Assembly: GCA_008632985.1 (NCBI GenBank)
Contig: QPGO01000012.1
Coordinates: forward strand, 62,001-126,000
DNA: 64,000 nt
Source: Psammoneis japonica
Lineage: Eukaryota
Direction: 5' to 3'
A model generated the notes under the pieces. That model was not told the DNA's origin. It did not search any database and saw nothing but the letters and a program-made list of their open reading frames with translations. Below are positions 4,278-54,499 of the stretch, piece after piece (the first letter of the stretch is position 1; each line of letters opens with the position of its first letter). A program made the position numbers and the translations under genes.

Positions 4278-4366
<89 letters not shown>

Positions 4367-20770: not shown

Positions 20771-20895
20771 GGTTGTCGCAGTCAACCCCCCTGCTGCTCT
20801 TGACCACAAACAGCGGAGAAACTTGGGAAGCCTTTAAAAATGAGCCCAACAACTCAGGCAACCTCCAATGGGTTGCCTCCCCACTCTCTGCCTCT

Positions 20896-21190
20896 GCAGT
20901 CTGTCTGGGTTTGGATGTAGAAATTGGAGAAGACGGATGCAACGTAAGTGAACACATCAAAAACAAATGAAGCTCTTTTTGAGCATGCCTTTTTTGAAGA
21001 GTGTCACATGTGGCAAAGCACTTTTCACATGTGTGATTCTGAGAGCTGCAGGAACAAGCACTGCCTGCAGTCTTTCTGGGTCTGGACACAGAAATTGGAG
21101 AAGACGGATGTGTTGTTGGTGAGTGCATCAAAAACCAACGAACCTCTTTTTGCACATGCCTTGTTTGAACAGTGTAATTTGTGGCAACTT
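20896..21190. repeat. Two diverged ~120-bp copies, period ~170 bp
   Basis: GAAATTGGAGAAGACGGATG at ~20920 and ~21091 with alignable flanks. Confidence 0.85.
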
Positions 21191-33314: not shown

Positions 33315-34856
33315 CTAATAAAGGGCAGCAGCGCACATCATGATTACCCACATGAACATGCTGAGAGATGCAATGGGACATTGTTTCTTGCTGAAATTTC
33401 TATCCGCAGCATCAGATTCTGAATTGAGGCTATTGAACGATGCGTCTTGAGTTGGAACAGTGGTGGTAGGCGCCTCGGTTGCCGACGGTTTGTAGGTAGT
33501 CGGATCGATAGTGGTAGGTTTCTGGGAGAATGATGTTTCTTGAGTCGGAACAGTAGTGATGGGCTCTTCGGTTGTCGTCGGTTCAGGGGTCTTAGGATCG
33601 ACAGTGATAGGAGCAACACTACTAGTGGGGTTCTGGGATGTCGGATCGATAGTGGTAGGTTTCTGGGAGAATGATGTTTCTTGAGTCGGAACAGTAGTGA
33701 TAGGCTCTTCGGTTGTAGTCGGTTCAGGGGTCTTAGGATCGACAGTGATCGAAACAACACTAGTTGGGTTCTCGGATGTCGGATCGATAGTGGTAGGTTT
33801 TTGGGAGAATGATGTTTCTTGAGTCGGAACAGTAGTGATAGGCTCTTCGGTTGTCGTCGGTTCAGGGGTCTTAGGATCGACAGTGATAGGAGCAACACTA
33901 CTAGTGGGGTTCTGGGATGTCGGATAGGGAGTGGTTGGCGTTGGAGTAAAACTATTGCTCCAAATGCAGTTGCCGCTACAATCGCGACCAACGACCACGT
34001 TGGTGCTGCCGTCCAGAACGCCGCTACTATCGAGGGCACCTTGGCAATTGAAGGCGGTGCCGCCATCTTCGCAAATCTCACAGAAGCAGTATTGATCACC
34101 AATCTTCATCACACAAGAATGAAACATCAACGAAGGCTCCCAAGACGAGTAGGTCCAGTAGCATACATCCCTGCCAAGCACCGTCGGTCGGCACTTTTCG
34201 CACAATTCGACCGAGTTGGTCCAGACATATTCGTTGGGCGAAACCTCCACGTACATGTCATCTGGCCCATAACATTCTCGGTAACCTTCTTGCACAGGCA
34301 TGATTGCGTCGTAGAAATGTTCAGTGGGGTCGGGTGGATCTTGAAAGTAGGTACATCCCGCCTGCATATTGCAGATGCAATCATCGTTGGACAAGTCAGA
34401 ACAGGGCGTCGGAGTGCCGTCACAGAGCCCATCGAACCAGTAGTCTCCAGGAGTGAATTTGCAGCCCAAGATTGACTCACAGACTGACTTCTCGCCCCCC
34501 GAACAGAGAGCAGGAGCCGTCCCCATGCATTGTGCTGGGGATTTTGGAGCTCCCGTGCAAAAGAATCCCGTGGAAGACCATTCCTGATTGGGTCCAAAGG
34601 TGCAACCATCTTGCTTATGACATCCCAAGCTGTCATCCGAAAAGAAGTCACAGGGGGTAGGGTTTCCCTCGCAGCTACCATAATAAGTGTTGCTGGGGGT
34701 CGCTGGGAGCCAGATACATCCGTCGACAGCTTCACAGATAGATTTGACATGGCCACAGCACCCAGCTGGGTCTCCCGTACAAAGTGCATGTACCGAGACG
34801 GGTACCAAGTTAATACTCATCGTTAGCAGACAGATGAATTCTTTTGAAAAGATCAT
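33315..34856 (-). CDS. Secreted Cys-rich protein with Thr/Pro mucin-like stalk and probable GPI-anchor signal
   Basis: Signal peptide; duplicated Cys module; three 46-47-aa T/P repeats; hydrophobic C-terminus. Confidence 0.8.
   Translation of the reverse strand: MIFSKEFICLLTMSINLVPVSVHALCTGDPAGCCGHVKSICEAVDGCIWLPATPSNTYYGSCEGNPTPCDFFSDDSLGCHKQDGCTFGPNQEWSSTGFFCTGAPKSPAQCMGTAPALCSGGEKSVCESILGCKFTPGDYWFDGLCDGTPTPCSDLSNDDCICNMQAGCTYFQDPPDPTEHFYDAIMPVQEGYRECYGPDDMYVEVSPNEYVWTNSVELCEKCRPTVLGRDVCYWTYSSWEPSLMFHSCVMKIGDQYCFCEICEDGGTAFNCQGALDSSGVLDGSTNVVVGRDCSGNCIWSNSFTPTPTTPYPTSQNPTSSVAPITVDPKTPEPTTTEEPITTVPTQETSFSQKPTTIDPTSENPTSVVSITVDPKTPEPTTTEEPITTVPTQETSFSQKPTTIDPTSQNPTSSVAPITVDPKTPEPTTTEEPITTVPTQETSFSQKPTTIDPTTYKPSATEAPTTTVPTQDASFNSLNSESDAADRNFSKKQCPIASLSMFMWVIMMCAAALY
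33500..33925 (-). repeat. Three near-identical coding tandem repeats (~138-141 bp)
   Basis: ITVDPKTPEPTTTEEPITTVPTQETSFSQKPTTIDPT x3. Confidence 0.95.
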
Positions 34857-35954
34857 GGTTTTCCCATCAAAGAGGAGTGCATTTACTTTAGGTGTTCACT
34901 TGTCCGTTGATCGTGGTACAACTTTAAACCAGCACTTACTTGTCGTTTGAATGCTTAGAGACTGAGAAACGTAATGCAATTCACATTCCTTTCGAGGCGC
35001 ATTCTATTTTTTGCAGGATCAGATTTATCGTATGTGGGGGTAGTTTAGAGAGAAGGCTTCTCGTTCGTTGGTGAATTTGAGAACGGCGCGAACTTCGAGG
35101 AGATTCCTTGTGCGCGATGGAAAAATTCCATTTCAGCAGTCACGAATTCCTTCGATGACCCGCAGACACAAACATCCGCAATGAGAGCCCCGAGCGAGTT
35201 CCAATCCAGAAGAATGCCACTTGCGCAAGTGATGTCATGTCCCACACTTGAGTGGCATGCATCACGCCGAGCCATCCATCTCATTGCACTCTCACACCTG
35301 AGCATTGTGTGGCATGGGCTGAGAAGCACACACAGCAAGAAGAGAGCCAAGGTGTGCTGAGCTGGCTGAGAAGCACACGCTGAAAACATCTGCAGAGAGA
35401 CCAAAATGCAGCACAGGCATGGTTGGAATTTTTTCCTCATGTCAACTGAGCATTTCCCATGACATGGATGGCAGCCATTGGCACACAAGAGGTGTCCGCC
35501 TGGACACAAGAAGCACTGCACGTGCGCCAGAGCAGCGGCCCACTTGCAAAAACTCAGGCTTTGGTGTCACTGTTGGGCACAGCCAAAAAATGGACTTTGC
35601 TCCCAGACCAAATGTGCACAGTGGAAGTCATTGGACTTGATTTCCACATTTGGACAGGCAGCATGGGTGGCAGCACTGCATTTGGCGGCTCTGGTTGTCG
35701 GGCTGGCGCTGTTGTGCGCGGGCGTTCTTCATCACAGCTGCTCTGCCTCAAAGGTCAGGCACGCTGCACTTTGGCCTTTTTTGCCATTGGTGCCACCAGC
35801 ATGAGAGGACAATTTGAGCTCAGCTGACAATTTCAGTGACACACAAGCAGGCCAGCAACAAGTGCTCAGCAGCAACCTCTCAACGAAAATGGAGACAACA
35901 GCAACCACTGGACCCACAGCAGCAAGACAACAAAACCGGTTGATCTGGAGAAGC

Positions 35955-36124
35955 TTGCAGACTAGCAGTGTCGGGACAATCTAATGGACATCCAGGACAG
36001 ATGATAATCGTGTGCTAGATGAGAAAGAAAAGTGAGCAAAGGAGAGATCATCGGATCTCTCCATGCTGTCTGTGCCAGTCTGTCCGACACAAGGGAGTGT
36101 GCTCCCCATCTCGGATGTCTGTCA
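35955..36124 (-). repeat. 3' LTR
   Basis: Colinear with 42862-43031 (19 mismatches in 170 by my count); preceded on the minus strand by a polypurine tract. Confidence 0.95.
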
Positions 36125-36133
36125 CCCTCCCCT
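36125..36133 (-). other. Polypurine tract AGGGGAGGG
   Basis: Abuts the 3' LTR. Confidence 0.85.
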
Positions 36134-39100
36134 GATGAGCAATGCAATGCTCAACAAGAAAGAAAGAGACGATCCGAACAAAAAGAGAGGACCAGAGTGG
36201 CAAAGAACAAAACAAATAAAAAAGAGACACACCCAAGACTCAATCCACAACAAACCCGATGACAATCAACGGCAATGTCCCATCAAACGGTGGGCATGGC
36301 GGGAACGAAGCATCCAACCCACAGCCTTGGTCAGTGCATCAGCAGGGTCAATGACACCCGGGACATGTCAAGTGACAATCTTGCCTGCGTCATGCCAGTC
36401 TTGGATGGCAAAATGTTGAGTGTCAATGTGGCGGGATCGCTCCGCAGGCACCTTGTCATTGATCATCTGGATGGCAGAGGAGCCATCAATGTGCGAGGGA
36501 GTGGGGTCACGTTGAGGAAAGCCCAATTCTTCCAGAATCATGCGGAGGTGCAGGGTCTGTTTCGCTCCAGCAACAGCTGCGAGGAACTCAGCTTCTGTGG
36601 AACTGGCAGCAGCAATTGTCTGCGTGCGGCAACGACGATCAATTGCATCACTGGCAAGGACATGCGCGTGTCCAGCAGTGGAACGGCGACGCCACAGTTC
36701 ATTGGCATGTGCCGCATCAATGAAACCAAGAAGTTGGAAAAGGTCATCAGCACGAGGGAAGTCTGGGAGAGATGGGTCATCCTCAAGCCATTCGAAATCG
36801 CGAGGAGGCAGACCGGGATCGCGCTTGGACTTCTTGTGCGTCAGTCCCCAATGTTTGGTGCACCGCAAATGCTTGGCCACATGCTTGAGTGAATCACAAT
36901 GAAGCTCAGCCGGGGCCTTGGAAAACTTGGACAAGGTGACAATGGGATGGCCAATGTCCAAATGACAGCAGGAGCAGGCAAAGACCAACTCACCCAGAAG
37001 AGAATGGCAAGAGAAACCCTGGGACTCAGCGAGAGTGTCACACTCAGGAGCACCCTCTTCAGGACCTTCAGCAGCACACAGATCAGGGACACAATCAACC
37101 AAAATAGGTGCAGCCTTGAAGTCAGAGTCAGATTCATTTGCAGTGGGAGCATCCCAACCATGGGTCTTGAAAACACGATCAAGGCAGCTGGCAACGTTGA
37201 CAGCAATTGAATCGTCATTTTGAATGACATCCTCACCATTGAATTCAGTGACCAAGCCCAAACACTTGAAGGGAGGAGCATCCTCATTCTCCATCTGGAG
37301 AGCCTTGCCAATGTGGTCACAGATCTCTTTTGCAATCTTTTTGGAGGGACAAGCAAGAGCAAAATCATCGACCTGTCAAAGGAGAAGGACCTTGACACCA
37401 TCATGTTCACCAGAATGGATGCACTTGTCATGAGCAGTGTTGCGGAAAAGAAGTTTCGCACCCGTTGGAATCGAATTGATGTGCTTTTCCCAAAGGACAC
37501 CAGCTTCAGGGTGACCTTGAAGAGCACGCTTGAGTGGGAGAACACAGTGGCGGGGCACTTTCTTGCCAAATCTCTTTTCACACCATGCAGCATGTGCATC
37601 ATCAACAGCAACAAAAACCGGCTGTGAAGGACCAGGAGAATGAGCGCAGGCATCTCAAGCATCACCACCAAAGACACGATGCAACACAGCTGCACTGAGA
37701 GCAAAAAACATCTTTTTGATGGAGCGTTCCACACACGACGAATGGGTGGAAGTCAACTTGTGCAAGGCCGGCATTGCTGACTTGGAACCATCACCACATT
37801 GCCGAGAACAAAGTTGTCCATCTGGCTTTGCCATGCAATCCCAATGTGGCCGCATGACGTTCACACCAGGGGGACATGGTTGTGGAGGACCATGCATGCC
37901 AAGGGCACAAAATTGATCCAATTGATGCTGCTCGCCTTCTTCCCATTCAGGCCATGTGTCAAGTTTACAAAGCTTGGCACGGGTGAGGCGGTAAAGAGCA
38001 GCTTCCTCCGGAGTGAGAGAGCAGGAGCTAATCGCATTGAGGTGTGCATGGAATGCGTCCACAGGGATGGCCTCATCCGAAAAATCATCATCAGGACAGA
38101 GAAGGGTCACAACAGATCGCACATCTTCCAAAGTGAGTTCGGGAACATGGGAGTCATCCTCCATGGAGTCAGGTTCAAATGACTCCGCTTCCTCAAATGC
38201 CTTGTTAAGGGTGCGGGAATCCAATCGTCGTTCCGGTGCAAAAGCAATCTCAAAGGTCGGGATTTCATCATGAAAGACCTGAGACAAGGCCTCTTCAGCA
38301 TCCGATGGGGTAAAAACTTCACGCTTGTTGACAGAGACAATGCATGCACCCACAATCTTGTTGCAAGCAGCATGGAGGGAAGAGAATGAGGATGCCGCAG
38401 GACTGTGCTGCTTGATTTCCAACACATGGACATGGTCCATTGGTGCACACTGGGAAAATCCAAAACCACAGGTGGGGTCCTTTGGGGGGCGTTTCATGGT
38501 GCATGCAACAGTCGTTGCAAAAGGATTCAATGAAGAGGCAAACACAGGAACAGTGGTGTCCTGTGTTTCAGCTGGAAAAGGCTGACCATTTTCCGCACGC
38601 TGCAAACGGATGGCATTGGGAGGAAGTTGATCCAAAAATGGATCATTCATGCCTTCATTGCAGTGCACATGTTTGGCCGTCTTGACTTTGTCAGTCTCAG
38701 GATCCCACCACATGACATTCTTCAGGGTGTTTGGAAGGCAACCAAGGAATGCGCCCTTTTTGGAATTGGTCCGGAAGGTGGCAGAACGAGCAGTGGACCG
38801 TTTGGACCACACTCGACATCCGAAAGTCTTGAGAGCAGCAAAATCTTCGACCTTTCCGGTGGCAAGAGTGATGGGTGCCGCATCTTGATCTTTCGCAGGA
38901 GTGGCATTCTTGATGCGGAGGTGATGGTAAAATGCACAGGGCCAGAATCGAAACAGAAGGTTGGCGCCAATTAAAATTGCACGAATCGCGTTTTCAACGG
39001 TTGAATGTGAGCATTCAACAGGTCCACATTGGTTGGATGCGCCAGCGCCAGAAGGACAGATGTCACACTGGAATTCTCATTCAAAGAGGTCACGAACTTT

Positions 39101-42100
39101 GGGGGTTTTGCATGATTCCCCACCTTGGTCCACAAACACATGTTTGTCACAACAATTTGGTGAATGTCGATCCAAGAATCGGCAAAGCCACTTGAGAGGA
39201 CTGGCTTTGGAAACCCTTGCCACTCCATGGAGCATCCGTGTGTGATGATCGTAGACAGTGATCCAACACATTTCACCATCACATCCAAGATGATCAACCT
39301 TGCGGTCTTCATTCTTGGAAGTCTGGCCAGCAAAAGCAAAATCTACAGTGAGACCTTGGTGTGGCTGGGTTGCCTTCCGAGTCATGTTCGGTCCAGCAGG
39401 AGTCTTGACTTGCTTGGCTTGGAAACACACAGGACATGTGTCAAGGACAGGATTGGCATGTTGGAACTTTGGGATGCCCTTGACATGCTTGTGAGCATTG
39501 TGCAAGCAGTGATCACTGGGATGTCCAAGGTGTTGATGCCACAGAAGACGTTCAGTCTCAACTTTGAGAGAGCGGACAGGAGCAGAGGTAGACAACGGAG
39601 GGGAGACATGGGGAGCCAAGTCACACTGCATCAAAAACAGCTCAGCATCCATCAACAAGGGATCAGATGGACTTTGTTGGACATTGACAAAAAAGACTGC
39701 ACGTTGACATGCATCATCAACATCATCAACCAAGGACAAGTCAGGGGTCTTTGATGTTGAAGGGACACAAGACGCAGACAGAGGAACCAGGGGTTGTGTG
39801 AAGACCTTGCCATGTCAAAGTGTGCCATGGACAACTGCCTCTTGAGCATCAGTGGAAGCAGTGCAAGCACAAGTGCCATCGGCGCATGTCTTCTCAAGGA
39901 GCTCGGAGCGAATGGACTGAGGTTTGAAACCAGAAGCCCACGCAAAACCACATTCATCAATCAAAGTGGAACGCAGGCTGGGATGGCAAACGGTGCGTGC
40001 AAGAAGAAAACCTTCAGGATTGTCTGCAGGCACCTGCAGACAACCAAAGCCATGAGGGACCACATCAGAGCCTTCAGCAGCAGGAAGCATCTTCAAAGGA
40101 CAAGGGTTGTCCAGTCCAAAGGGAGCATGGGCATGGAGGAGGTTCTTGTCCCCTGTGCAGGACACCCAAGCACCAGCATCAATCTGTGCACGATGTGTCG
40201 TTGAATCACGAAGTGCGTGATTGATGGGAATGACTGGAGCAGTCAAGGATGCAAAAGTCGTAGGTGACTCCGGGGGAGAAAAAATTGGGGAGATGCGTGT
40301 GGCACTGAGAGGCGACAAATGCTGGGTGTTGGTCACATCAAGATGCTCAAATTCTTGGTCTTGATCAGTGGACAATGGGACATCAGCATCCAGTGTAGAA
40401 AGGTCTGGTTCCCTCCCCTGATTGTGATTGCCAGGGTCATCATCAGGAATCGTCTTGGGATCTGGAGTGCCAGCCTTCGTCGAGCCCGAAAGAAGGTCAG
40501 CAAATGATGCAGGTGAAAGAGGAACATCAGCGGAAGGCAACGAGTCGGTTGGACCCACTTTCAAAGTTGCCCCGCTTGCAGGAGTTTTCGGATTGGAGGA
40601 GGATGGGTGGCATTGTTCATCCGAACATGACAATGGCCCCAGAAAAAATCCTTCTTGGACGTGTCAGACTTGAGTGCATCACGAGCACGCTGATCACATT
40701 GGAGGAACTGGGAGAACCGAACAAGATGAGTGCGCAGGTGCTCAGCATTGTTCAACACAGGACACTCATGGAACAAGTGGTTGTCACCACAAACAACACA
40801 TGGACGATTCTGTGCAATGGCAGGAGAGGACTTGATCCTGCAGATGCAGGCCTTGTAGATGCCATGGAGGGCCTGTGCATCATCATCTGCAGGGACATCT
40901 ACAGCAGCAAGTTCACTCACAAAATGCTCCATGGTTTCCGCAGGTTCTTCCGCAGCAGGAGGTTCAGGTTCCTTGGGAGGCTCCTCAATCGCTGGAGGCA
41001 GAGGAGAGACTTCATCTTTGGGAAGTGAGTCAAGACCTTGGATGGGAGCTGCGAGAGAAGGAGCAGGCGAAGTGTGAAGACGATGTGGAGGACATTTGGG
41101 AGGGTCCTTGACACGAAGAGCAGGACCATCCAGTTCCTTGAGAATCTCACTGACAGTTTCAACAATCTTCTTCTGGGTGAACTTGTGTTGTTGGTTCTTG
41201 TCTTCCTGGGCATCCGCTGTTTTACAGTGAAGGTGCTTGCCACAGCGGGTGTTGCTGAGAAAAATGTTGAGCTCACCAGGGTTGTCAAGAGAGGCATCAA
41301 CATTGGAGATGACAGCTCGTAGCTGGAGACAGTCTCTGAATGGAGCACAGTGGCTAAGGACCGCAAGATTGTTTTGGTGCGGGCAGCTCTTGATCAACTC
41401 ATGTGGACGCTTCGTCCAAATCGGCAGGATGTTAAAGAGAATCATCTTGACAGCAGCACATCCATCACCATGGCATTGACGAACAATGTCAGGGTGCTTG
41501 GAGTCTGCCGGAAAAATTCCAACTTTCTGAATGTGCTGGAAGACAGTCAGTTTCATTCGGTCAAGTGCTGCTGTCATCCAGAGAGGGAGATCATCGGTTG
41601 GGTCATTGCCACAGGTGAAACCCCAATTTCCACCATCCTTGATAAAACACCACAGAGGGTGCATGTGTGTGCCACAAGCCGAGGCTTGTTGGGCTGCAGC
41701 AGTGTGCCATGCACGAATTCCTTGAGGAGAGATGTCATCACAAGTGAGGGGGTCACGAAGGAAAGACTTTGCATCCCAGTCAGTGCGATGAACGAAGAGA
41801 GAACCATCAGCAAGGATGAGACGCTCAGTGCCATCCTCGTGATGAAGGTTTCCAGACTTGCAGGGTGCCAGAGATTTTCTGAGTGCTGCTTTCCCGGCTT
41901 CCTTGCATTGACAGCGGGCTGGCACATCCTTTGGGGAAGTCCTTTTGGATTAAAGGTGTGTGATGCGCTGGCAGCAGTCAAGGAAGAAGCCGTGCCAGCA
42001 GCAGTCATGGCAGACGGTGCAGGAGATGACACCGTGGGAGCAGAGTTCTTCAATGCATTTGTCACAGCTTGCTCAAACTGTTTTGGACCAGGCAAATGAG

Positions 42101-42851
42101 TGGCTGAGGCCTTGGCAAAGTCTTCAGGAGCAGGACCTGCAGCAGCAACCGGTGGAGGTGCAGAACTTGAAGCAGCTGGTGGGTCTGGATGCGGATCATC
42201 GGAGACATCATCCCAGAAATCACAACACCAAAAACGAGGGCTGAAATGGAAACGTAGAGTCCCAACACACACATGCATGGCATCGTCGTTCTCTGAGATC
42301 GCCTTGATCACAGTCTTCTGAAGAGCACTGAGGTTCAGACAAACTGGGGGGCCTTGAGGGGTGGCCACAAAGAGAGGAGCCTTCTCAATGATCAGTCCGA
42401 TTCATGCAAGATCTTTGGTTAAGATGGCTTCAGGGATGATGAGATTGTGAACGATTTTGTGTCGGAGGACAGCAACAGCGTCGCTCTTGAGGCCTTGAGG
42501 GGCAAATCCATCCAAAAGATCTTCAGGAGCAGGGATCTCGTCCAAACAAAGGGCATTCAGGAAAGCATGGGCATCGGGCAAGCGATCATGTGGGCTGAAT
42601 TCAACCCGTGTCGTCTTGATCTTGGTCAAATCGATGGTGTTTTGATTTTTGTTCACCATGGTTGTGCAGGAAAAAAATCAAATTCCTGCACAGAGCTCTG
42701 GCATGTGTTCTACGGTGGTCGTTTGATCACAAATCGAGAGGTGAAAAAACAGCTGTGACAATGATGATAATTTCAATGAAGAAAGGGTTGACAAATCACA
42801 CAGCAGGAGTTGCAACAGAGGAGCACAGAGGAAGAGGAACAGCACACTGCT

Positions 42852-42861
42852 GCTCACAACC
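42852..42861 (-). other. Primer-binding site, half-tRNA-iMet (Ty5/copia) type: GGTTGTGAGC
   Basis: Immediately follows the 5' LTR; one mismatch to GGTTATGAGC. Confidence 0.75.
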
Positions 42862-43031
42862 TTGCGGACCAGCAGCATCGGGACAATCTGGCTGATGTCT
42901 AGGACAGATGACAACCATGCACTAGATGAGAAAGAAAAGTGAGCAAAGGAGAGATCATCGGATCTCTCCATGCTGTCTGTGCCAGTCTGTCCAACACAAG
43001 GGAGTGCACTCCCCATCTCGGATGTCTGTCA
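42862..43031 (-). repeat. 5' LTR
   Basis: Colinear with 35955-36124; followed on the minus strand by the PBS. Confidence 0.95.
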
Positions 43032-45589
43032 GAAGCCTCTCCAAGCTTCAGCAAAAAGTCTGGAAAGAGCTCATTTTCTTGACAAGCCCCATGGCTTTGT
43101 GAGCAACAAGTGTCCCAGAGGACCCCAAGCAAGTGGCTGGGAAAAGTGGCATTTTTGCTTGCAGTTGTTGACTGAACAATGAAATTTTTTTGTGGAACTC
43201 TGATGAACCAGATCTGTCTGACAGCAATTGGCGCTGTTTTTTGAACAATTCAGCAGGATTTGTGTCACCAATGTAAAAACAAATCCATGAAATTCTGCTG
43301 TGTGGAGTGTCCAAATGATTTGAGTGACATTGAATGGAGTCATGCAAATGATTGTTCACATTTGTTGAAAATGGATTGACAAGCACATGAAAGTCATCAG
43401 AGTGATGTGCTCTGCTCCATTTTACAATGTCCAGGGAAGAAAAGAGGGGAGTTTGATCTTCAAGCATCCACAAAGTCAGTGCTCCTGGATCTTAAAGACT
43501 GGCTGACATTTGGGTTGTGCTCACATGTCTGCTGAGTGAGGTGGCGCATCCTTCTGTTGGCCAACACAGCCAAGCCACAGAGTTGGCCACCAGCAGCATT
43601 GCTGCCCCCCCCCCCCCCCCTGGCAGGACTCAGCTGCACTGATGCATGGAGAACAAGAGTTTGTGGTTCTTTCTACAGGAGCAGTGCCAATGCCACACAA
43701 CCTGCTTGTGTTTTGCATTTTTTGCTCTCTTGCTTTTATGAAACAGCAGTCAGTTGGAGAGCACCTCTGTCCCCTGTGACCACATGGGCAAAAAATCATG
43801 TGTGCATCAACTGTTGTGACTGTTGCCACAAGCAACTTTTCATGCAGTGCTCTGTGCACACAAACCATGTGTTTGGGCCCTGGCAATTGTGGTGTGGATG
43901 TGCTGTTGTGGGAAACAAGAGTGGTGAAGAAGAGATGACTCAAAAGCAAATCAAATGCCAGAGACCAACAATTGAGAACTGAAAGAAGCAAAACAGACCA
44001 GACAAGGCAGCTGATGGCAAGTGGCTGGTGCAAAAGAGACAAGCTTGAGTTGGTGTGATCTCCACAAAGATGGCAGGCCACATCAGGGTCAAAAATTGCG
44101 TGCCAAGTTCTTGCAAAATTGAGTGTCAGTGGCAAGCAAATGTTGCTGTTTTCAAAGTGAAAAACATGTTTGGAGTTGCAAGTGAGTGCACTTTTCCATT
44201 GCTGAACAGAGCAGCAGCAGGTGCAACATGCGACAGCTCTTGTTTGGTTTCTTGCCCCAGTGTGCTGCAGAGAAGAACCACAAGTCAGCCAAAATGCACA
44301 AGAAAAGCCACAAGGTGACAACAATGAACAGAGCTGAGCAGCACACATGTCCACAACATGGGTTTTCTCACCCAGGGTTTCACTTTCACAGACACGTGTG
44401 CAGCACTCCACATGTCCCTGCCTCTCAGCACCCTCATTGCCCAGTGTGTGCTGGCTGTGAGAAAGCAACCTCATTTTGCCTTGCCTGCCATGGATTTTGC
44501 TGCCACCCAATTTTGTTAAAGTGGAGCTCATTTGCAGATGTTGTTTTGATTTCAGCCTTTTTTCTTCAAAGCAACACAGAGGACATGCACTTTGCAAAGA
44601 AGGCCCAGTTGTGCACTGTGCACCACACCACTGCAAAGCTCAGGCACTCCTCTTCTGCACAGCATGAAGCCCACTTTGTGGGGATGGAGGTTGCACATTG
44701 TGTGACTTCTTCACAGTGTCACCATGCATGACTTGCTTTGAGCAGACTGTGACTGGGCTGCCCTTCACAAGCACTGAGCACTTGCCTGTCTTGGCAGCAA
44801 TGTTCCTGCTGTTGTTCTTGGCTTCTCCATCTTGGCAGCAGTTCTTGGAACTTGGAAGAAAGAGTGAGGTGGGGGCTTTCTGCACAGTTTGACATGTCTA
44901 GCCCTTCACAAACACTGGCTTCCTCATGGCTTGGATGACCTGCTTTTTTTGCTGCTGGCACCCCAAGGAAGGCCCAAGTGGTGGCTGCTGCCTCCCTTGT
45001 TGTTGCTGCTGTCCAAAACACACTTCTTCTTCTCCTGTTGCAACTGCTTCACAGCCTCCTTTGCTTTGTCTGCTGCCTTCTTCTCAGACCTTTTATCATG
45101 GCCTTCTTGTGCAAGCTCCCAACACTGCTTTGGTTTGCAACATTGAAGAGAAAATGTCACTCAGTCATGCACAATTGCCCTCTGTTGCTCACTGCCTTCT
45201 CTTCTGTTGAAGCCAGCACTTTCTCCACACTGTTGAAGCCAGCACACTCCCCTCAGAGCTTTCTGAGGTTGGTTGTGGCACAAGTCATGAGAAATCAGAC
45301 CTCAAGATGGAGCTTGCACATGTGGCAGGAAACCTGGAGATGAAGCTCTGGGAAGAGAGCTGCAAGGGTGGGTGCTGGTGTGAGCAGCAAGAAGCAGACT
45401 TGCTCTCTGCCCGTCAATGTGCAGCACAACACATTGACAAAAAAAGACTTGTGGTGGCTTGTTCTGGGTGCTCACAGTGTGCAACACTGCCTCCATGTGC
45501 AACCACATCGACCACAGAAGCAGCTCACAAGCAAAGCTGTTGGTTTTCTTCAATCTGTTCTGAAGTTTCCTCCACCTCCTTCTCTTTGG

Positions 45590-46400
45590 TGTTGCCTTTC
45601 ACTCCATGCCTCCTTCCATCTTTGTTGAGGCTCCATCCCATCATTGTGCACTGTGTCAGGTTGGGGCAGCAACAGGGCATTGTCAAGTCATGCGGCAGAC
45701 CAGCAAAGCATTGGAGTGCAAAAGGGAATGAAATGGTGTGCTGTCCAAACATTTCATGACAACACAAAGCAACTCATGACAGCTTCAATCATGCACCATT
45801 GAAGTCAGCAAGCAACACATGATCAAATCAACCAAGTGACTCCATGTTGCAGTTGTTTGTCTCAGCAATGCTGAGCACACTTGAGATCAAGGTTTTGAAG
45901 TTGATGCAGAATTGTGCAGCAGGTGCTGGCATCACACAGAGCTTGTTTTCTGGTTTGCAGTCAACAATTGTGTGCAGCAAAATGTGTGTTTGTGCATTTG
46001 CTCCATGCCTTCTTCCACCTTTGTTGCTGCACCCTCTGATTGCTGTGTTTGCTTGGAGCAGCAACAGGGCATTGTTGAGTCATGTGGTGGGCTGGCAAAG
46101 CATTGGAGCAAGTGCAAGAGGGAGAGAAACACTGTGTTGTCTGTGAACATTTTATGATGCACAAAGCAACTTCATGATCATTTCAACCACATGCCACTGA
46201 AATCAGCAAACAATGCATGATCAAATCAACCAAGTGACTCCATGTTGCAGTTGTTTGTCTCAGCAACACTGAGCATGCTTTGCTTCAAGATTTTGAAATT
46301 GATGCAGAATTGTGCAGGCACTGGCATCATGCAGAGTTTGTTTGCCAGTCTGCAGCTGACAATTGTGTGCTGCAAAATGTGTGTTTTTGCATGTGGAAGC
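45590..46400. repeat. Tandem duplication, period ~398 bp
   Basis: CATGATCAAATCAACCAAGTGACTCCATGTTGCAGTTGTTTGTCTCAGCAA at ~45818 and ~46216. Confidence 0.9.
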
Positions 46401-49400
46401 TCCTGTTGCACAACATCCATGTCTTGAACAATGGCGCACTGCTCATTTGCTGTTTGTTTGGGTGCCCAAACAGTGGCACCACAACCCAACCCCCCTGGCA
46501 ACACAAAGTCATCAGGGTTGACACTTTTTGCTGTGGCATTGCAGACATGGGGCAACTGCAGTTAGATGTGGGGGGTGTTTTTCCAGTGGGATTGCTTCTG
46601 CCCTGCAAGCCTGCACTTGGCAAGAGGCAATCTAATTGCACTGAGATGGTGTGATTTTGTCTGGCAGTCAAGCTGACAAGAGACATTTGCTCAACTCACT
46701 TAAATGACAAAATTTTGGACTCAAGTGATCCAGCTAAAAATCCAAGGAAGGGTTTGATGGACAGACCAGCACCAATCACTTTCGTGCAATCCATTGTTGA
46801 AACTTTAAAGCAAGCCTGGTTTTTCTTTTAAAATGAGTTTCAGTCATCTGTCAAAACTGCTCCATGATGTGATTGTTTCTGTGGTGATCCCATTTTCCCA
46901 TTTTTGCTCTTTTCTGTTTTGCATTTTGGTTGTTCATTTTTGTTCTCTGGTGGACTTGTTTCCAATCTTCTTTTGCTCACATGGCTTTCATGAAGGTTGC
47001 CTGGAAACTGACAGAATGGATTTTTTGTTGATGGCACATCTCTTCTGCACAGTGTGAGTCCAGGCAGAAGGGAGCTGGACCCAGCAATCATGAGCCCCCT
47101 CACTTGAATTTCATGCTCAAGCTCATGTTCTTGCTTTTTGCCACAGCACAGGACCCCCTTGGTGCACTTTGAGCAAGAAGGGGGCCAACAAAATGGCTGT
47201 CAGAAGCTGTTTTGTGGCCTGACTCTGAAGCTCCATCAAAAACATGTTCCAAGCTGGCCATGCAAGACTGTGCATGAGCTGTGGTGCCTCTGTTTGCGGT
47301 GATGACAACCTGACTTTGCAGCCAGTGCACAGGGCAGAACAGCATTTTCTTTCTTTTCAGACCATGTTTCTTGCACAAAAGTGAGAAGAACGTTGCAGTT
47401 GTTGCCCTGTGATCTTTTTTTTGTGTGGTGCACAATCTGCGCATGTGACAAGGCATGCCCTCAACATCAGTGCCCTGATCTCCTAAAACTTTTCTCAAGC
47501 TTCCAGCTTGTGCATCCCTGCAGCTGTCATTTTGCCATTTCACAGTCTCTTTTGCAAGCTCTGGCAAACATGGTCCTTGCTGAATCTGTGCCCCCCCCCC
47601 CCACCTCCCCGCCAAGTCTGACAAAACATTTTTGTCTCTCCAAACTGCACACAACCCAGCAAGTTGTCCACACAAATCAAATTTGCTGTTGTTTGCCAGC
47701 TGCACCCAATTGGAAGAAACCCTTGCAGAAAACAACAGGTGAGCTGCTGCAACTCCAGGGCTCCAGGGATGATTTTGCACTGAAGTGCACCAAGTGTGCG
47801 CTGTTGATGAATTGTGCCCTTTTTGCATTGGCAAACAATGTTTCATCAACAATCAACAGTGCAGGTCAGGACCAATGTCTCTCTGCTCATTTGCAGTCCA
47901 GGAAGAATGCAAAGTTTCCAGCTTTGTTTTTTGTTTTTTGGGTCCTGGGGTTTGTGCACAAAGCACTGTGCACCATCTCACCAAGCACGTGCTGCTTTGC
48001 AACAACACTGTGCCTGGCAATTTCTTGCTCAATCAAATTGCAAAACCTTGGTGCACCATGTGTGCAACAACATTGTTGCTGACATGCCTGTTCCTGGTTC
48101 CACCCACCCAGGCAAAAAGCATGGGTGTCAGTGTTTGGAGTTTTTTCTGCCAGGAGATGCAAACCCTTGAGCTTGCACAAATCTAACTGCCGCTCAGCAA
48201 GAGCACTTCACGCACAGGACGTGGGGTGATCCTGCATGTGCAACTGGTTGGCACATGCTGAAGTGCAAGCTTGGCAACAACACGTGCTGGAAAGCTTGCT
48301 TCTGCTTTTTTTTGCCCCTCTCCAGCCCATGCACTCTTGACATGTGTCAGAGCTGGGCTGGTCTGACAGCATGTGCTGCTGTGCTGGTCAATTTAATTTT
48401 CTTGCAGAAGAGGCTTCCAGCAAAGAGTTTGTGCACCTCAAAATGTCTTGGCTTTTGCCATCATGTCTGCAACTGCCAGCGTGTTTAACAGCATTGTGCC
48501 AGTGACAGAGATGCCACCAAAGGTGCTGAGAAGGGGACTTCTTTGACTTGTGTCTGCATTGTTTGATGATGCTCTTTGCATTTTTGTTCATTTGCATCAC
48601 ATGTTTTCTGTGTTGCACTCCACACAAGCTGCAAATTTGCTTGAAGATGTTCCAGGTTTTGGTTGGTTCATTTCTTTTTCACAGGCAAGTGGGGTCTGTG
48701 ATCATTGTTTCAATTGAGTTTTGTCACAAAACTCCTGTGTCACAGTTTGCAAACCAAGACAATGGCACTGAAGGCAGCTCTCTGTTTGATCATGACCACC
48801 AAGGGTCTCATTGCAGCAGCACATCCTCTTGCTGTGTTGTGGCCCAAATTTTTGGCACACCCACAATGTGTCAAATTTTGTGAGGCAAGATTTTGGAAAC
48901 AAGCACATGCTTGGTTTTCTGCTGTGTTCATTTTTGGTCCTGCAGGGTGTGAACTGGGCTTGTTCACTCTCCAAGCACAAAACCGCAAGTCAGCAAAAGT
49001 GCAACAAGCACCCGGCAATTTTCTGTCTCTCCACCCTCAACTGTTGCAGCAGTTTGATGCTGTGCCTGTGCCATGTCAACTGGCCTGCTGAGGAACATGG
49101 GTCTCTCTACTTGGTTCAAGCTGGAATGAAATTTCTGCGTCATTGCCAGCAGAATTGTCCTTTGTGAGATTGGCGCTGTGCTGGTCTCCTCTGGCACTTT
49201 GGAGCCACCACTGGCAGTTGTGCCAACAATGCCAGAGACGCCAGTGGTGCCAAAGGGGGTGCTCTGTAGTGCCAGTGCTCAGGAGAAAGGGAGACATCAT
49301 GGTGACTTCTCTCTTTTTGCACCTGCCACCCAGCTGCCAGTGCATTTCCTGTGTCAATTTCTGTGCAAGATGCTTCAGCACCACTTCTGCAATTTGATTG

Positions 49401-49560
49401 CAGTTTCTCACTCATTGCTTCATTTCCCACCCTTTCTTTCCAGTTTTGCAAATTTTCCTTCCTTGCCTTGTTTCTGTGGATTGTCAAAATTCATCCAGAG
49501 CAAAACAAAAACTTCCCTTTGCTGTTTCTTTTCACATGTCACTGTGAAGGGAAATCCCCC

Positions 49561-49592
<32 letters not shown>

Positions 49593-49897
49593 GTTTTTAT
49601 GGCAAACTCTGTGCACCAGATTCCTTTGACAACACTTCAGTTGCACCACATTTCTGGAGCAATGCAACCTTTTTGAACAAGATCCCAAAGATGGGCACAT
49701 GTCCTTTTTTCAACATTTTGTTTTTGGTGTCTCCCAAGCCACTGGGGGGTGTGGTTGTTGGGATTTTTCCATTCTTTGAGCACAGTCAGCTGTGTGAAAA
49801 ACACCCAGCAGATTTCCTGTCTTGACTTGAAACACAAAACAGATGGATCATTCAATCAAAAATTCCTGCCGCACTGTTTGGTGTGCTGGGGGTGTGG

Positions 49898-49985
49898 GTC
49901 AATCTGGGGCTTGGGTCTGGACATGACAGCTGTTTGGTGTGCTGGGGTGTGTGTCAATCTGGGGCTTGGGTCTGGACATGACAGC
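49898..49985. repeat. Two copies of GTCAATCTGGGGCTTGGGTCTGGACATGACAGC
   Basis: Directly visible. Confidence 0.9.
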
Positions 49986-52665
49986 ACTTGAAACATTGCA
50001 GACTTTTAATTTTGATGGTCCAAGTTGGTGTGGGTGACAGAAAATGATTGAATGGTTGACACTTTTCTCCCCCAGTTGACACGAGGTCTTTTGTCTTTTC
50101 TTCTGCCTGCTCTGCAAAATGGCAGAAATTGTTGAGAGAATGCAAGGAGCCACAATGTCACCTGCACCATTTCCACATGACATCCTTTGTTGTGTTGCAG
50201 AATTGTCTGTCTTTTGCATCATGGGCAAGTCAAACTCTCTGCATGTCAACAGCAGCAAATGCATTGTTGACTTCTGTCATGAGGTCAGACAGCATTTCAT
50301 CATTGGATCCATCTGTGATCTCTTTTTTGACACAGTTTTGCCATTCTTTTTTCTTTCCCTCATCAGGATTGACCAGTGAAATCCTCTTTTCACCAAGTGG
50401 CTCAGGCACTCTGAGAGCACTCAAAAACTGTTTGGCAGCTGTGTGTGCATTTCTTTGCAGTTTCATGCCAAAGCAAGAGTCAAGTCATTCATTTTTGGTG
50501 TGAGCCATTTTGTGACTTCAAGTGACACAACCCCTCAATTTCATGTGTGTTGTCAGGACAAAAGCTCCAAAACACCAAAGATGTGGTTTTCTGATGACTC
50601 ATTTTCCCAGCCAAGCAGCTGCCATCATTGACATTTTCTTCCAAAAACATGTGCCCCCTTGAGACAGTTTTCATGCCACCATGTGGTGCCAAGTGTTGTG
50701 GCACACTGACAGAGCAACAACCTCAATGGCGTCTCTGTGAGACACACTGAGACCAGCATGTGAACATGCTGGTGAAAATGCACATCACACCATTGCTTTG
50801 ACCAAAGAGCCCACCAGCCTCAGAGACCCCCCATTGGGCCAGGGTGGCCAGCTTCTTCTTGTGAGATTCTTGCTTTGTCAAATTTGTCAGAGTGTCCTCA
50901 TCAACTGACCCACTGGACTTCATAAACAGCCCACTGCTGATGAGCTGTCTGGGGGCAACATTCCCAAACCTCTGAATTTGCAAGGTTGTGAGCACTTGCA
51001 AACACATGCCTGCTGGGCTGGGAGCTGGAGCTCTGTGTCAACAACTCCACAGTGTGCTGCTGCACACCACAGAACAGGGAAGTTAAAAATCAAATTACCC
51101 TCAGCACTTTGTTTGGCATGAGGCAAAATCTCTGACAATTTGGTTGGAGAGGAAAATCAGCTTCCTTTTCACATTGCTTTTTAAAAAGCAACAAAAGGCC
51201 ACTGTCGCACACATCAACCAGCAGCTGTTGCCCCCTCATGCTGCTGTTGAGCAGCAAGTGACAATGTGGTCATTGCTAACGGCTACAATTTGAGCAGTAA
51301 AACAGAAGACCATGCAAAGACGACGCACAAAAAAAAGATTCATTTTTTGCCTTCATCTTTGACGTCTACTCTAGAGGGACTAGGTCTAGGACTACCGGTA
51401 CAGTCAGCTTTCTCACGATGAAGTTTATTTGCCACGTTGGAATCTTTTTACTTGCTTGCGCTCTTTGTGAAGCGCTTGAAGCGACAGGTGAGCGAAATCC
51501 TTTGATCTTTGATGATGCCGTGTTGCGAAAAGGACGCAATGGCGCCTTCTTGCCTTAATTATTTGTGTCTTCTTTGAAAACGCCTGTTTGACATGTCTTT
51601 CGTACCTCCCTTGCCCTTGTAGTAGATACAACGTCAATGGGACCGAAGGATGGCGATTCCTCCTCTACGATGAATTTGCGAGTAAGTTTCTTTTTGAAAA
51701 AGAACCAATGGTGTTGTTCCAAGCCTCCATCTGTCTTTCTTTTGTATTTCCTCCATACTCACGACACCACCTCCTTTACACTGTGCTCTATTGTTTCTGC
51801 TGTGCTTCTTGCTGCATGCTATTTTGTAGCGCGCACTCAGCAGCGACAGCAGTGGCAGAGATAGCAGCAGCAGCAGCGACATCAGCAGCAGCGATGTGGT
51901 AAGCACTGTAAGTAGTCAGCCAAGCCATTCTCCGATTGTACATTGTCTCTCAATCCTGCAACCAACACTTTCCGCCTTTCTGTCTTCTGTTCTCTTCTAA
52001 CACAGGGGCGAAACTTCAACACCGTGAGTAACAGCACTTTAAGCCAGTTTGGACTCATGCGTCAGAACTGAATCTCGTCGCTCACTCTCTCTTCTTTCCT
52101 ACTTAAACACCTAGCCATGCTCTGGGGATTCAGATTGTGATGAAAGGTTTGACTTTTGCAGGGATGGAAGATGGTGAGGTTTGAATGCTGCTCGTCTATT
52201 TTGCCAATTCTTTTGCAACAGGGATGTCTCATCGTTAAGGAACAATCTCACATTTTAATGTGTCATCTTTTCTAGCGTATGGAAGTATTTCAGCGGATCT
52301 CGTTGTGACCGTGATGCTCAGTGCCGGAGCGGTTGGTGCGATCTAAACTATACTCAAAGGAACATATGTTCGGATCCATTGTCCTCCGGTGCATTCTGTA
52401 CCAGGAATGAGCAGTGCCGAAGTGGCCGATGCAACACGAACATCCTAGTCTTACAATGTGTCTAGGTATATCCTGGTGTTCCAAGAAATGGAGAAGTTTT
52501 GTGGTTGTGCATATTTTGGTCGAAAAAGTATTAAATGTTGTTGCAGTCTAGCACTATTATGTTCATCCAGTAGAGCCTTGTCCGGCTTGCCATCCCTCCG
52601 TTCCTACCAATGAGTATATTAGCCGGCGAAAAGAGATGAAGGTTCATCAAGCATTGTGTTTGGTA

Positions 52666-52995
52666 CAGATGAAACCATGCGTTCGTCGAGGTCGGCATTG
52701 CCATCATCAGTTCAACCTAGTCGCCAAAACAAAGTGCGACAACTAGTTTTGTATCAAGGTGATTTCTGCTCTGCCTCGTCCTTGGCGCCCAGTGAATTGG
52801 GAGAGCATGGGCAATGCAGTGTTGGAAGCAGATGAAACCAAGCGTTCGTCGAGGTCGACATTGCCATCATCAGTTCAGCCTAATCGCCAAAACAAAGTGC
52901 GGCAACACGTTTTGTATCAAGGTTATCTCTGCTCTGCCTCGTCCTTGGCTCCCGGTGAAGTGGGAGAGCATGGATATTGCAGTGTTGGGAGCAGT
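52666..52995. repeat. Tandem duplication, period ~163 bp, normal dinucleotide content
   Basis: CAGATGAAACCA..GCGTTCGTCGAGGTCG at 52666 and 52829. Confidence 0.92.
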
Positions 52996-53087: not shown

Positions 53088-53741
53088 TTAATTCGGAAGC
53101 GAAGCCTTCTCCGCGAACCGTGAAAGTGTCGTTTCTTCTTGATTGTCACAATGATGGTTCATGAGTTCCTCCATGAGTACATTTACTTGGCGTTTTATTT
53201 CCATGCTGACCCGTCGGTATGCTCCATCACCTTCACCGTCTCTGGCACAAGCCGTGGGGGCGTCGACGTTCCATTCGCGAACCTGTTTGGATTTGTTGGC
53301 AAGCGTATGTTTGATATCATCACCACAACTACACAAAATAACCAGTTGATCAATCATGAGCGTATCCGTCGTTTGCTTTTTCGTAGATGATTCCGTCGGC
53401 TCATCTTGAAGCTTGAAGAGTACTTCGTCGATTGTCTTGGGCGCAAAGGACGAAATGTCGACACCATCCAATGCCATGGCTTGAACTGCCTTGCTCTTGA
53501 CCGTCTTGCGTTGTTTAGGTGTCGAACATGGATCGCAGCAACAAGGCTCTTCCGTAGTAGTGACGCCATTAAATACAGAGGATGAATCCAACGCGACAGA
53601 GGCAATCACAAGTTGGTCCAGCAACGCTTGGTGACGACTGTTCGTCTTGCGTTGTTCTTGACGAACCCACTCTCTCGCCCATCCTTCTGCCATTTGAGAG
53701 CGACAGCTGTTGGAGCGGCATGCAAAGATTATCAATTTCAT
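53088..53741 (-). CDS. LMW-PTP/ArsC-family protein (thioredoxin-type arsenate reductase-like)
   Basis: MKLIIFACRSNSCRSQMAEGWA (CX5R P-loop), AVQAMALDGVDIS, LVILCSC, WNVDAP. Confidence 0.8.
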   Translation of the reverse strand: MKLIIFACRSNSCRSQMAEGWAREWVRQEQRKTNSRHQALLDQLVIASVALDSSSVFNGVTTTEEPCCCDPCSTPKQRKTVKSKAVQAMALDGVDISSFAPKTIDEVLFKLQDEPTESSTKKQTTDTLMIDQLVILCSCGDDIKHTLANKSKQVREWNVDAPTACARDGEGDGAYRRVSMEIKRQVNVLMEELMNHHCDNQEETTLSRFAEKASLPN

Positions 53742-54317
53742 TATATAATATGCAGACAAAATAGTAGTGATTTTTTGTCCCCGCGATGATTTCTCAGAAA
53801 AAGTTGAACAGTCAGCTCCTATTGTCGTGATGGACTTGGCAAAAACAACAAACGAACGACTTTGAAAGGCTTCACCACACAATAGTCGACATCGAATGCG
53901 TAATAAAAAACTATGTTCCCGCAACCTTGCCCCCCCCTGTCTTGAAAACTGCGTGAGCTTGAAGCTGTTTTGACACCAAAGGTCGATAAAGATGAATGAG
54001 CGCCAAAACGGCGTGAGGAGGAGTCGGAAGCAGCATCGGCAGCAAATGTTCAATCATTAAAATACATTCAGGGCTGAATACCAAGGAATATTACGGCTGA
54101 CGCACGCGCGACTCACTCTATCTGCGCCACAATAAAATGAAACCGCCCCACTTCTCGCGCGCAAAATCGGAAACCTGCTCACGCGGCTCTCAGCAAGCTC
54201 TGAGATGGCAATACCATAACCTCACTGGTGGCGTCGCAGCTGGAAGAGAAGGTGCACATAACAACTTCTCAGTAGTCTATCAACAACGCTACTTTATCGT
54301 GAGTTTGTTCGAACCGT

Positions 54318-54467
54318 ATGACATTCAATCGACTTGAGGGCGACGGCCCTACAACCAAGCGGCTTGTGCTTTCAGCGCTTCTCTCGACGGCTCTCATTGG
54401 AAGCACGCCGACAGAAGCGTTTTCTTCACCATCCGACACTGTTTTGGCGGTTGCAACAGCATGGAAA

Positions 54468-54499
<32 letters not shown>

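Follow-up and report, generated by a model that had tools for sequence, protein, structure and literature searches.

Depletion of TpA in a Ty1/Copia retrotransposon and further tracts of the diatom Psammoneis japonica points to a DNA-level hypermutation process

Results

The window analyzed here is a stretch of 64,000 bp from the diatom Psammoneis japonica (GenBank assembly GCA_008632985.1, contig QPGO01000012.1, positions 62,001 to 126,000 of the forward strand). It contains three tracts in which the dinucleotide TA is nearly absent, and the longest of them harbors a Ty1/Copia retrotransposon. Observed/expected ratios of all 16 dinucleotides were determined in 1-kb bins over the whole window. 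For TA, values between 0.01 and 0.12 were obtained in all bins of the blocks 2001-5000, 18001-23000 and 35001-51000, compared to 0.37-0.85 in the remaining bins, while the edge bins at 5001, 23001 and 51001 were mixed. TG and CA reached 1.3-2.2 in the blocks versus approximately 0.8-1.4 elsewhere, and AT (0.54-1.19), AA and TT were unremarkable inside the TA-poor blocks. By means of the gaps between consecutive TAs, the tract limits were refined to 1896-5098, 18082-23453 and 35047-50923. These limits are close to the coordinates (~1840-5295, ~17950-23450 and 35100-51270) at which an earlier note on this DNA had described TA-poor, TG/CA-rich stretches. Its further statements that AA/TT and AT stay common, that the flanks are normal in TA and that the borders are fairly sharp agree with the scan as well, since the borders are only 200-300 bp wide. 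At the right border of the second tract, the final tract TA lies at 23144, and from 23453 onward a TA occurs every 10-50 bp.

Altogether, 89 TAs were counted in 24,452 bp of tract DNA (3.6 per kb) versus 1480 in 39,548 bp of flanks (37.4 per kb). Over the tracts as a whole, the ratio is 0.05 for TA and 1.7-1.8 for TG and CA. A block-wise tally yielded 86 TAs where 913 were expected at flank frequency, a difference far outside chance. Block by block, the loss of TA and CG (1773 in sum) is approximately balanced by the gain of TG and CA (1846). The base composition is nearly unchanged, because the G:C pairs won from TA cancel those lost from CG. A neutral equilibrium of the whole genome was considered as the origin of the low TA values and rejected. 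Flank DNA outside long open reading frames (ORFs), i.e., 17.6 kb of intergenic DNA, introns and short exons, retains a TA ratio of 0.58 (flank ORFs, 0.51) versus 0.05 in the tracts, indicating that the depletion is regional.

The retrotransposon is located on the minus strand at 35955-43031 (7.1 kb). It is bordered by a target-site duplication (TSD) whose five bases, GAAGC, are identical at 35950-35954 and 43032-43036, and it carries long terminal repeats (LTRs) of 170 bp, the 3' LTR at 35955-36124 and the 5' LTR at 42862-43031 (both minus strand). The polyprotein frame (36275-40564, minus strand; protease, integrase, reverse transcriptase, RNase H) is interrupted by five in-frame stops, all of them TGA, and contains no frameshift. 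It was recovered as a single tblastn high-scoring segment pair (HSP) with 47-49% identity to full-length diatom-type Copia polyproteins, whose named owners are Nitzschia, Fistulifera and Cylindrotheca, and Pfam detected gag_pre-integrs and SH3_retrovirus within it. The LTRs, the 5-bp TSD and the order of the domains, with integrase preceding reverse transcriptase, identify the element as Ty1/Copia. Only 32 of 264 expected TAs are left in it, a loss of 88%. Despite this loss the element appears to be young by ordinary measures, namely an intact TSD and the lack of frameshifts.

Sequence reads of one sample, belonging to three runs of one study (coded X1 to X3), were word-assembled into contigs, which were compared with the window. 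X1 contigs with at least 90% identity to the Copia element sum to a depth of 1100-1800 in its interior and 3500-4500 in the LTRs, compared to a single-copy depth of approximately 60, indicating that the family comprises tens of copies. At the Copia site itself, one X1 contig joins 35897 to 43433 and omits 7535 bp, which is 453 bp beyond the element plus one TSD copy, and X2 contigs have loose ends at 35897. This joint and the loose ends suggest a second haplotype that is differently structured at this site.

The direction of change was deduced from a reference set of 25 homologous polyproteins, in which 26 columns show tyrosine (codons TAY, Y being a pyrimidine) in at least 80% of the sequences. 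Not a single Tyr is present at these columns in the window element. Instead, there are 12 Cys (TGT/TGC), 10 His (CAT/CAC), one Arg (CGT), two Phe and one Asp, so that 22 of the 26 codons now read TGY or CAY, in agreement with a change that is restricted to TpA and has TpG or CpA as its product. In the same alignment, conserved Trp was retained at 15 of 15 and Gly at 48 of 52 columns; Tyr differs from all other conserved columns with p = 2e-15 (Fisher). The ancestor of the element thus possessed TA, and TA became TG or CA. Arg was retained at 27 of 53 columns, the others including five Cys, six His, one TGA and one Trp, which indicates that CpG decay is present but partial in the Copia element. 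The Tyr content of its ORF is 0.2%, compared to 1.9-5.0% in each of 70 database homologs, among which there was no hypermutated copy. Single-base changes could be inferred at conserved columns in 122 cases. A>G occurred 26 times at TpA versus eight times elsewhere and T>C 15 times at TpA versus five times elsewhere. The remainder consists of 20 CpG transitions, 14 other C>T or G>A changes and 34 transversions (partly ordinary divergence between families).

The two LTRs of an element are identical at integration. Those of the window element have diverged at 19 of 170 positions, by 18 transitions and one transversion. Fifteen of the mismatches are contained in 11 places where one pyrimidine-purine (YR) dinucleotide is replaced by another: four TG versus CA, four TA versus TG or CA, and three CG versus CA. 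Hence, these changes arose after insertion and in chromosomal DNA. Moreover, the ratio of Cys to His at the former Tyr codons (12:10) demonstrates that both strands were hit, which excludes editing of the sense transcript. Along the copies, TG and CA outcomes form no strand runs in seven of seven copy pairs (probability of as few runs, 0.43-0.997). This pattern is more consistent with numerous separate hits, spread over many cell cycles, than with a single strand-wide burst.

A scan of metagenome contigs for Copia alignments yielded 80 loci with TA ratios ranging from 0.15 to 0.81. The retained share of conserved Tyr tracks the TA ratio (Spearman 0.70, p 5e-13, n = 80). Locus L077, for example, shows two Tyr, 10 Cys and eight His at 21 Tyr columns, L041 shows four Tyr, 16 Cys and five His at 26 columns, and L003 has kept Tyr at all 25 columns with neither Cys nor His. 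Related Copia elements from unrelated environmental samples therefore carry the signature in a graded form. Pairs of copies were compared by counting TA in the TA-normal copy opposite TG or CA in the depleted copy (forward) versus the reverse, with A>G and T>C outside TpA as control. For the normal/depleted pairs, the counts at TpA and outside TpA were 100 v 14 and 164 v 154 (L048/L041), 83 v 13 and 100 v 116 (L054/L074), 95 v 13 and 228 v 199 (L054/L077), 92 v 18 and 145 v 144 (L012/L041), 51 v 9 and 81 v 69 (L016/L046), and 27 v 4 and 46 v 36 (L054/L031). Two pairs of TA-normal copies were balanced at TpA (6 v 5 and 12 v 11). The asymmetry is limited to TpA, and A>G and T>C elsewhere are symmetric. 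With an excess of A:T>G:C in the depleted copies and 18 transitions among 19 LTR mismatches, the changes are almost exclusively transitions of the A>G/T>C type. In the partly mutated loci L041/L043 and L007, former Tyr codons more often encode Cys than His (16:5 and 13:5); this skew is possibly a strand bias of single copies and is lacking in the window element.

The 89 TAs that survive in the tracts are not randomly distributed. TTAA is found at 66% of its flank density, while ATAC, ATAT and GTAC have no survivors. These data were fitted with a two-strand model, in which each adenine of TpA is struck independently and governed by its own 3' neighbor. According to the model, TA survival per strand is 0.78 for TAA, 0.32 for TAG, 0.18 for TAC and 0.09 for TAT. 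Over 16 contexts the fit gave a chi2 of 19.6 (12 degrees of freedom), compared to 167.8 (15 degrees of freedom) for uniform survival. In the window, TAT and TAC are thus the preferred targets, followed by TAG and at a large distance by TAA, and TTAA survives. Seen from the thymine, the same context is a preference for a purine before T. In six pooled pairs of metagenomic copies, counted by strand, the fractions hit were 123/354 for TAC, 138/379 for TAT, 43/212 for TAA and 68/395 for TAG. A pyrimidine after A is favored here too, as TAC and TAT were struck approximately twice as often as TAA and TAG.

On its left side, the third tract has a border zone (34676-35046) that falls into the 5' portion of a host ORF (33315-34895, minus strand) and in which the two alleles differ at TpA sites. 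Compared to the window, an X1 contig (34381-35987) has A>G at 34677, 34682, 34685, 34804 and 34815 and T>C at 35041. All six differences fall on TpA of the window, which has 23 TpA sites in 34676-35046, and an X2 contig agrees with the window at the six positions. Within the ORF, the allelic changes result in Y72H, Y71H and V31A and in two synonymous codons. It follows that the edge of the tract differs between alleles and that the process reaches into a host gene. The ORF itself encodes a Cys-rich product without a Pfam domain and with an apparently hydrophobic N-terminus, and three coding repeats of 138-141 bp (78-94% identity) follow one another in tandem at 33487-33938. Between this border and the Copia element, at 35047-35949, there is a flank with no Pfam match, in which none of 34 expected TAs is left. 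Its X1 depth of approximately 52, versus approximately 60 for single-copy DNA, would be expected if each of two alleles had half the depth around 14 differences. In this TA-free, 0.9-kb flank of single-copy depth, the process has spread beyond the Copia element.

X1 contigs over 43005-51277 have an even depth of approximately 60, show 20 differences in approximately 7400 bases and are equally TA-free. All contigs matched to the region revealed 261 transition places versus 30 transversion places. The tracts are covered by almost no X2 and by no X3 contigs, which carries no information on expression.

To the right of the Copia element, the tract continues with an old relic block (43037-50923; depth 60-70) that retains 23 of 295 expected TAs and 29 of 438 CGs (counted for 43032-50923). 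A tandem repeat of approximately 395 bp at 45598-46392 has units that are 82-84% identical, but 92% in a purine/pyrimidine alphabet. In tract 1 (1896-5098), which is strongly CpG-depleted, 7 of 120 TAs and 25 of 178 CGs were observed. Tract 2 (18082-23453), moderately CpG-depleted, has 24 of 201 TAs and 118 of 298 CGs and includes the repeats D3 and D6 of approximately 170-190 bp. Recognizable repeat thus accounts for 7.1 kb of 24.4 kb of tract, and the other 17 kb or so is devoid of detectable homology. Among 131 ORFs of at least 80 amino acids searched against Pfam, those in the tracts outside the Copia element had no credible match (best E 0.003, below curated cut-offs), and searches with 13 and 18 long ORFs detected nothing there either. 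When 10 Copia polyproteins were used as queries in a relaxed tblastn search, no match outside the element had an E below 0.095. For the 372-amino-acid ORF at 43524-44639 (minus strand), the longest one checked in the relic, there were no matches among 1.84 billion representatives. A 341-amino-acid ORF at 4215-5237 obtained nine weak matches (E 1.7e-6 to 1e-3), five of them without a BLASTP alignment and four covering at most 8% of the query. When the window was compared with itself in the purine/pyrimidine alphabet, the known repeats gained identity and no similarity between tracts emerged. Homology-based transposon annotation fails on TA-stripped tracts. A further property of all three tracts is the disappearance of TAA and TAG, which leaves TGA as the only stop codon and results in many long ORFs (up to 473 amino acids) on both strands. 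Such spurious ORFs could pass as genes for gene callers.

CpG is depleted in every tract, but very unevenly (ratios 0.03-0.6). Beside the low number in the relic, 209 of 393 CGs are present in the Copia element (35951-43031) and 31 of 50 in its left flank (35047-35950). The sequence near either border of tract 2 lacks TA but is still dense in CpG. Hence, the losses of TA and CpG are uncoupled. Decay of 5-methylcytosine (5mC) resembles the process seen here, as it yields TG or CA from a palindromic pyrimidine-purine step on either strand, and it is also present in the tracts. By contrast, it cannot remove TpA, and it is partial in the young Copia element, in which TpA loss is nearly complete. 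As the cause of TA loss, 5mC-driven CpG decay was therefore rejected.

Discussion

The results very probably reflect a process at the DNA level that converts A:T to G:C at 5'-TA-3' in putatively silenced domains of a diatom nuclear genome. The earlier note had proposed a process independent of 5mC that turns TpA to TpG/CpA on both strands of DNA, and this part of its proposal is borne out by the replacement of Tyr with Cys and His, the LTR differences, the mass balance and the asymmetry restricted to TpA. As observations that would speak against it, the note had named A>G/T>C changes without a bias to TpA, intact active family members that are equally TA-free and reads that show TA. The excess turned out to be confined to TpA, copies of related families keep TA, and contigs derived from reads, possibly of the same culture as the assembly, are as TA-free as the window.

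Whether TG or CA results depends on the strand that is hit, each strand having an equal chance, independently from site to site. Besides the young Ty1/Copia element, the affected domains would comprise older, unrecognizable relics and a short portion (a few hundred bases) of the host sequence beside them. In the proposed course of events, the Copia element would have integrated at the margin of an old relic that had long been silenced. In the domain that was then newly silenced, TA would have been lost fast, with a spread of approximately 0.9 kb into the flank, and the decay of 5mC would follow more slowly. Judged from the saturated state of a young element, the process would be much faster than ordinary substitution and than CpG decay. 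Its outcome would be an irreversible inactivation, because the process eliminates every Tyr codon and many codons for Ile, Leu and Val, together with TATA-like and AATAAA-like signals.

Since no enzyme or mark is visible in the window, chemistry and targeting signal have to be inferred. The mark that singles out the domain is probably silent chromatin or 5mC, and repeat homology is the less likely signal. As single-copy depth prevails over most of the tract DNA, silent chromatin is a better candidate than homology. The old relics may, however, once have been repeats. For the chemistry, deamination of adenine to hypoxanthine at TpA is the simplest option, to which we give about even chances. 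Mispairing of an oxidized or modified thymine at TpA with G is rather unlikely, and some other chemistry altogether is possible, being somewhat less doubtful than the thymine route. The RNA-editing enzymes ADAR and ADAT (TadA family) and the adenine base editors derived from TadA convert A to G with a preference for a 5' T or U, as does the process described here. Unlike the latter, which acts on both strands of integrated chromosomal DNA, ADAR and ADAT have RNA as their natural substrate. The tRNA substrate of TadA has a UAC context, resembling the preference for a pyrimidine after A.

A hypermutation of this type has been measured in mutation-accumulation lines of the chlorarachniophyte Bigelowiella natans (Mettrop et al., bioRxiv 10.64898/2026.01.13.699255), so that the statement of the earlier note that no such system had been described does not stand. 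According to the main text of this preprint, 231 of 302 nuclear mutations fell into two integrated viral regions, and 230 of the 231 were A>G or T>C, all at TpA. The rate was approximately 6e-7 per site per generation, about 1000 times background, in some lines only. TpA-poor coding sequences were enriched for reverse transcriptase and DDE domains, and an ADAT2 homolog was proposed as candidate enzyme. The main target was a single-copy, transcriptionally silent viral region, and the lines were clonal (10.64898/2026.01.13.699255). By analogy, the process in P. japonica appears to be of the same kind. Both cases have in common that A:T>G:C occurs exclusively at TpA, yields TpG or CpA depending on the strand and is confined to delimited regions, and silent chromatin as a signal would also fit the single-copy silent region of B. 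natans. As far as the preprint describes its case, there are several differences. The lineage is a diatom (Stramenopila) here and a member of the Rhizaria there. The regions of B. natans, DNA of nucleocytoplasmic large DNA viruses (NCLDV) and virophages, are foreign and silent, whereas in the window the regions are delimited, a mobile origin is evident for the 7.1-kb Copia element and silence is putative. Depletion is saturated here (TA ratio 0.05), compared to a Rho of 0.45 in the NCLDV region. The polarized target is an LTR retrotransposon whose LTRs diverged after insertion, instead of viral DNA, and the changes were seen to extend into adjacent flank DNA and a host gene. A preference for the base after A (TAY before TAG, and TAA far behind) was determined here, while the main text of the preprint gives no extended context. 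On the other hand, the rate was measured directly in B. natans, while in the window it follows from saturation only. Diatoms and stramenopiles are not mentioned in that main text, a literature search gave no diatom report of a TpA signature, and passages of PMC4504042, PMC2806351 and 10.1101/2025.10.24.684338 do not mention it. The window thus represents a second lineage, saturated and centered on a retrotransposon, of a hypermutation that is known from one recent preprint.

Of the other explanations, a strict homology-sensing defence like the repeat-induced point mutation (RIP) of ascomycete fungi, by which duplicates are detected by pairing in a sexual stage and mutated in bursts, survives best, yet it is improbable. 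RIP, too, is an irreversible point-mutational killing of mobile DNA that leaves a dinucleotide signature with transitions only and few indels in sharp domains. Leakage into flanking sequence is known for RIP and was also found here. In addition, the Copia family is multicopy by read depth, and the mutation is the exact reverse of the RIP product. RIP deaminates or methylates cytosine, senses duplications, acts before meiosis and makes TpA from CpA or TpG; a cytosine target and a gain of TpA are contradicted by the tracts, in which TpA is destroyed. For this reason the fungal RIP signature itself (C>T at CpA, TpA increased) was rejected. Homology sensing is difficult to reconcile with 17 of 24 kb of tract, for which self-comparison of the window revealed no repetition in either the four-letter or the purine/pyrimidine alphabet and which is present at single-copy depth. 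The designation of the process as repeat-targeted and RIP-like in the earlier note is therefore not supported. The lack of strand coordination is better explained by numerous independent events than by a few bursts, and the main target in B. natans is single-copy and was mutated in clonal lines (10.64898/2026.01.13.699255).

Editing of retrotransposon transcripts or double-stranded RNA by an ADAR- or ADAT-type enzyme before reverse transcription is very unlikely. It would explain why the best-characterized target is a retrotransposon, and a 5' U or T before the edited A is usual for ADAR and TadA/ADAT, a point that the B. natans preprint makes as well (10.64898/2026.01.13.699255). This explanation is largely refuted by the differences between the LTRs at 11 YR sites, including four TG/CA swaps and four sites with TA in one LTR and TG or CA in the other. 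Furthermore, it is at variance with the nearly equal numbers of Cys and His on the coding strand, the lack of strand runs and the involvement of a 0.9-kb flank of single-copy depth and of a host ORF in one allele. We consider it just as unlikely that a modified base at TpA was misread and that TA is really present. Modified bases do cause systematic miscalls in long reads, and the platform of the assembly and of X1 to X3 is not on record. Against an artefact of sequencing, base calling or assembly, the X1 contigs are equally TA-free and nevertheless contain a different border allele, which shows that they do not simply reproduce the assembly. Unrelated metagenome assemblies carry the graded conversion of Tyr to Cys and His, and the call of TG or CA at each site is stable, consistent with the protein and unmixed. 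Least probable of all is a native composition, i.e., a TA-poor source or avoidance of TA due to a TA-cutting nuclease or to transposons targeting TA or TTAA: it could draw on the ancestral state of the 17 kb without homologs, which is not directly known, but the Copia ancestor had Tyr codons, the five stops indicate that the element is not under selection, the loss of TA and CG equals the gain of TG and CA in each block, and the units of the relic tandem repeat differ mainly by transitions.

Several points weigh against a TpA-specific process in silenced domains as set out above. Within the window, neither an enzyme nor a base modification nor a chromatin mark is visible. The ancestral state is polarized for the Copia element only, and the other 17 kb is assumed to have been TA-normal by analogy and mass balance. 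Evidence on the rate is indirect, consisting of saturated TpA loss together with no frameshift in 4.3 kb and one transversion in the 170-bp LTR. The runs X1 to X3, whose platform is not recorded, may derive from the same culture as the assembly; they exclude an assembly error and are not independent. As to the metagenomic copies, their assignment to diatoms is based on named protein relatives (Nitzschia, Fistulifera, Cylindrotheca), the 15 pairs compared were picked by hand from 1480 HSP pairs, and the families are 79-86% identical with much background divergence. The pair L079/L080, although mostly TA-normal, still gave 16 v 6. Finally, the order of TAA and TAG conflicts, TAA being hit least in the window and TAG in the metagenomic pairs.

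Point-mutational genome defence has long been treated as a fungal specialty represented by RIP, and for A:T>G:C hypermutation of DNA there is one experimental report, the one on a chlorarachniophyte. A TpA-directed process in diatoms would mean that such hypermutation is widespread in an ecologically dominant group, that retrotransposons are targeted as well as viral inserts and that neighboring host genes can be damaged. More tentatively, a natural, chromatin-guided DNA base editor is conceivable that permanently rewrites silenced transposons and viral insertions at 5'-TA(Y)-3' of double-stranded chromosomal DNA, in diatoms and, by extrapolation, across much of the SAR supergroup (Stramenopila, Alveolata, Rhizaria). 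Provided that such an editor exists and works by deaminating adenine, genome defence would here rely on a natural DNA adenine deaminase. The enzyme would have to act after integration and on each strand independently, prefer TAT and TAC, spare TTAA, outpace CpG decay and spill over into host sequence. The preference at the position after A, together with the graded environmental copies, would then be a handle for a gene search by phylogenetic profiling, and lineages with and without the signature make a comparative gene hunt practical.

Flanking genes and minor features

The genes in the flanks are intron-poor and eukaryotic and encode, among others, an asparaginase, an ankyrin/IBR protein, Dcp2, a pirin and a DENN protein. 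The Dcp2 ORF matches diatom proteins with up to 61% identity, the named ones belonging to Fragilaria, Seminavis, Mayamaea, Fistulifera and Thalassiosira. A radical-SAM protein with DUF3641 is encoded at 54303-55667 (plus strand), an architecture that we take to be that of the arsenosugar synthase ArsS. Head-to-head with it lies an ORF at 53088-54053 (minus strand), which contains the beginning of a low-molecular-weight phosphatase/ArsC-like domain. The pair may constitute an arsenic-handling unit in this diatom. Just beyond the right border of the third tract, an X2 contig at 51334-51908 omits 51486-51620 and 51682-51829 in the manner of a spliced transcript, although the run is not recorded as RNA; if the contig is indeed spliced, two short introns are located there. 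The TA-normal flanks also contain a 163-bp tandem duplication (88% identity) at 52656-52981 and, at 5601-5900, a pair of 78-bp repeats 222 bp apart (86% identity).

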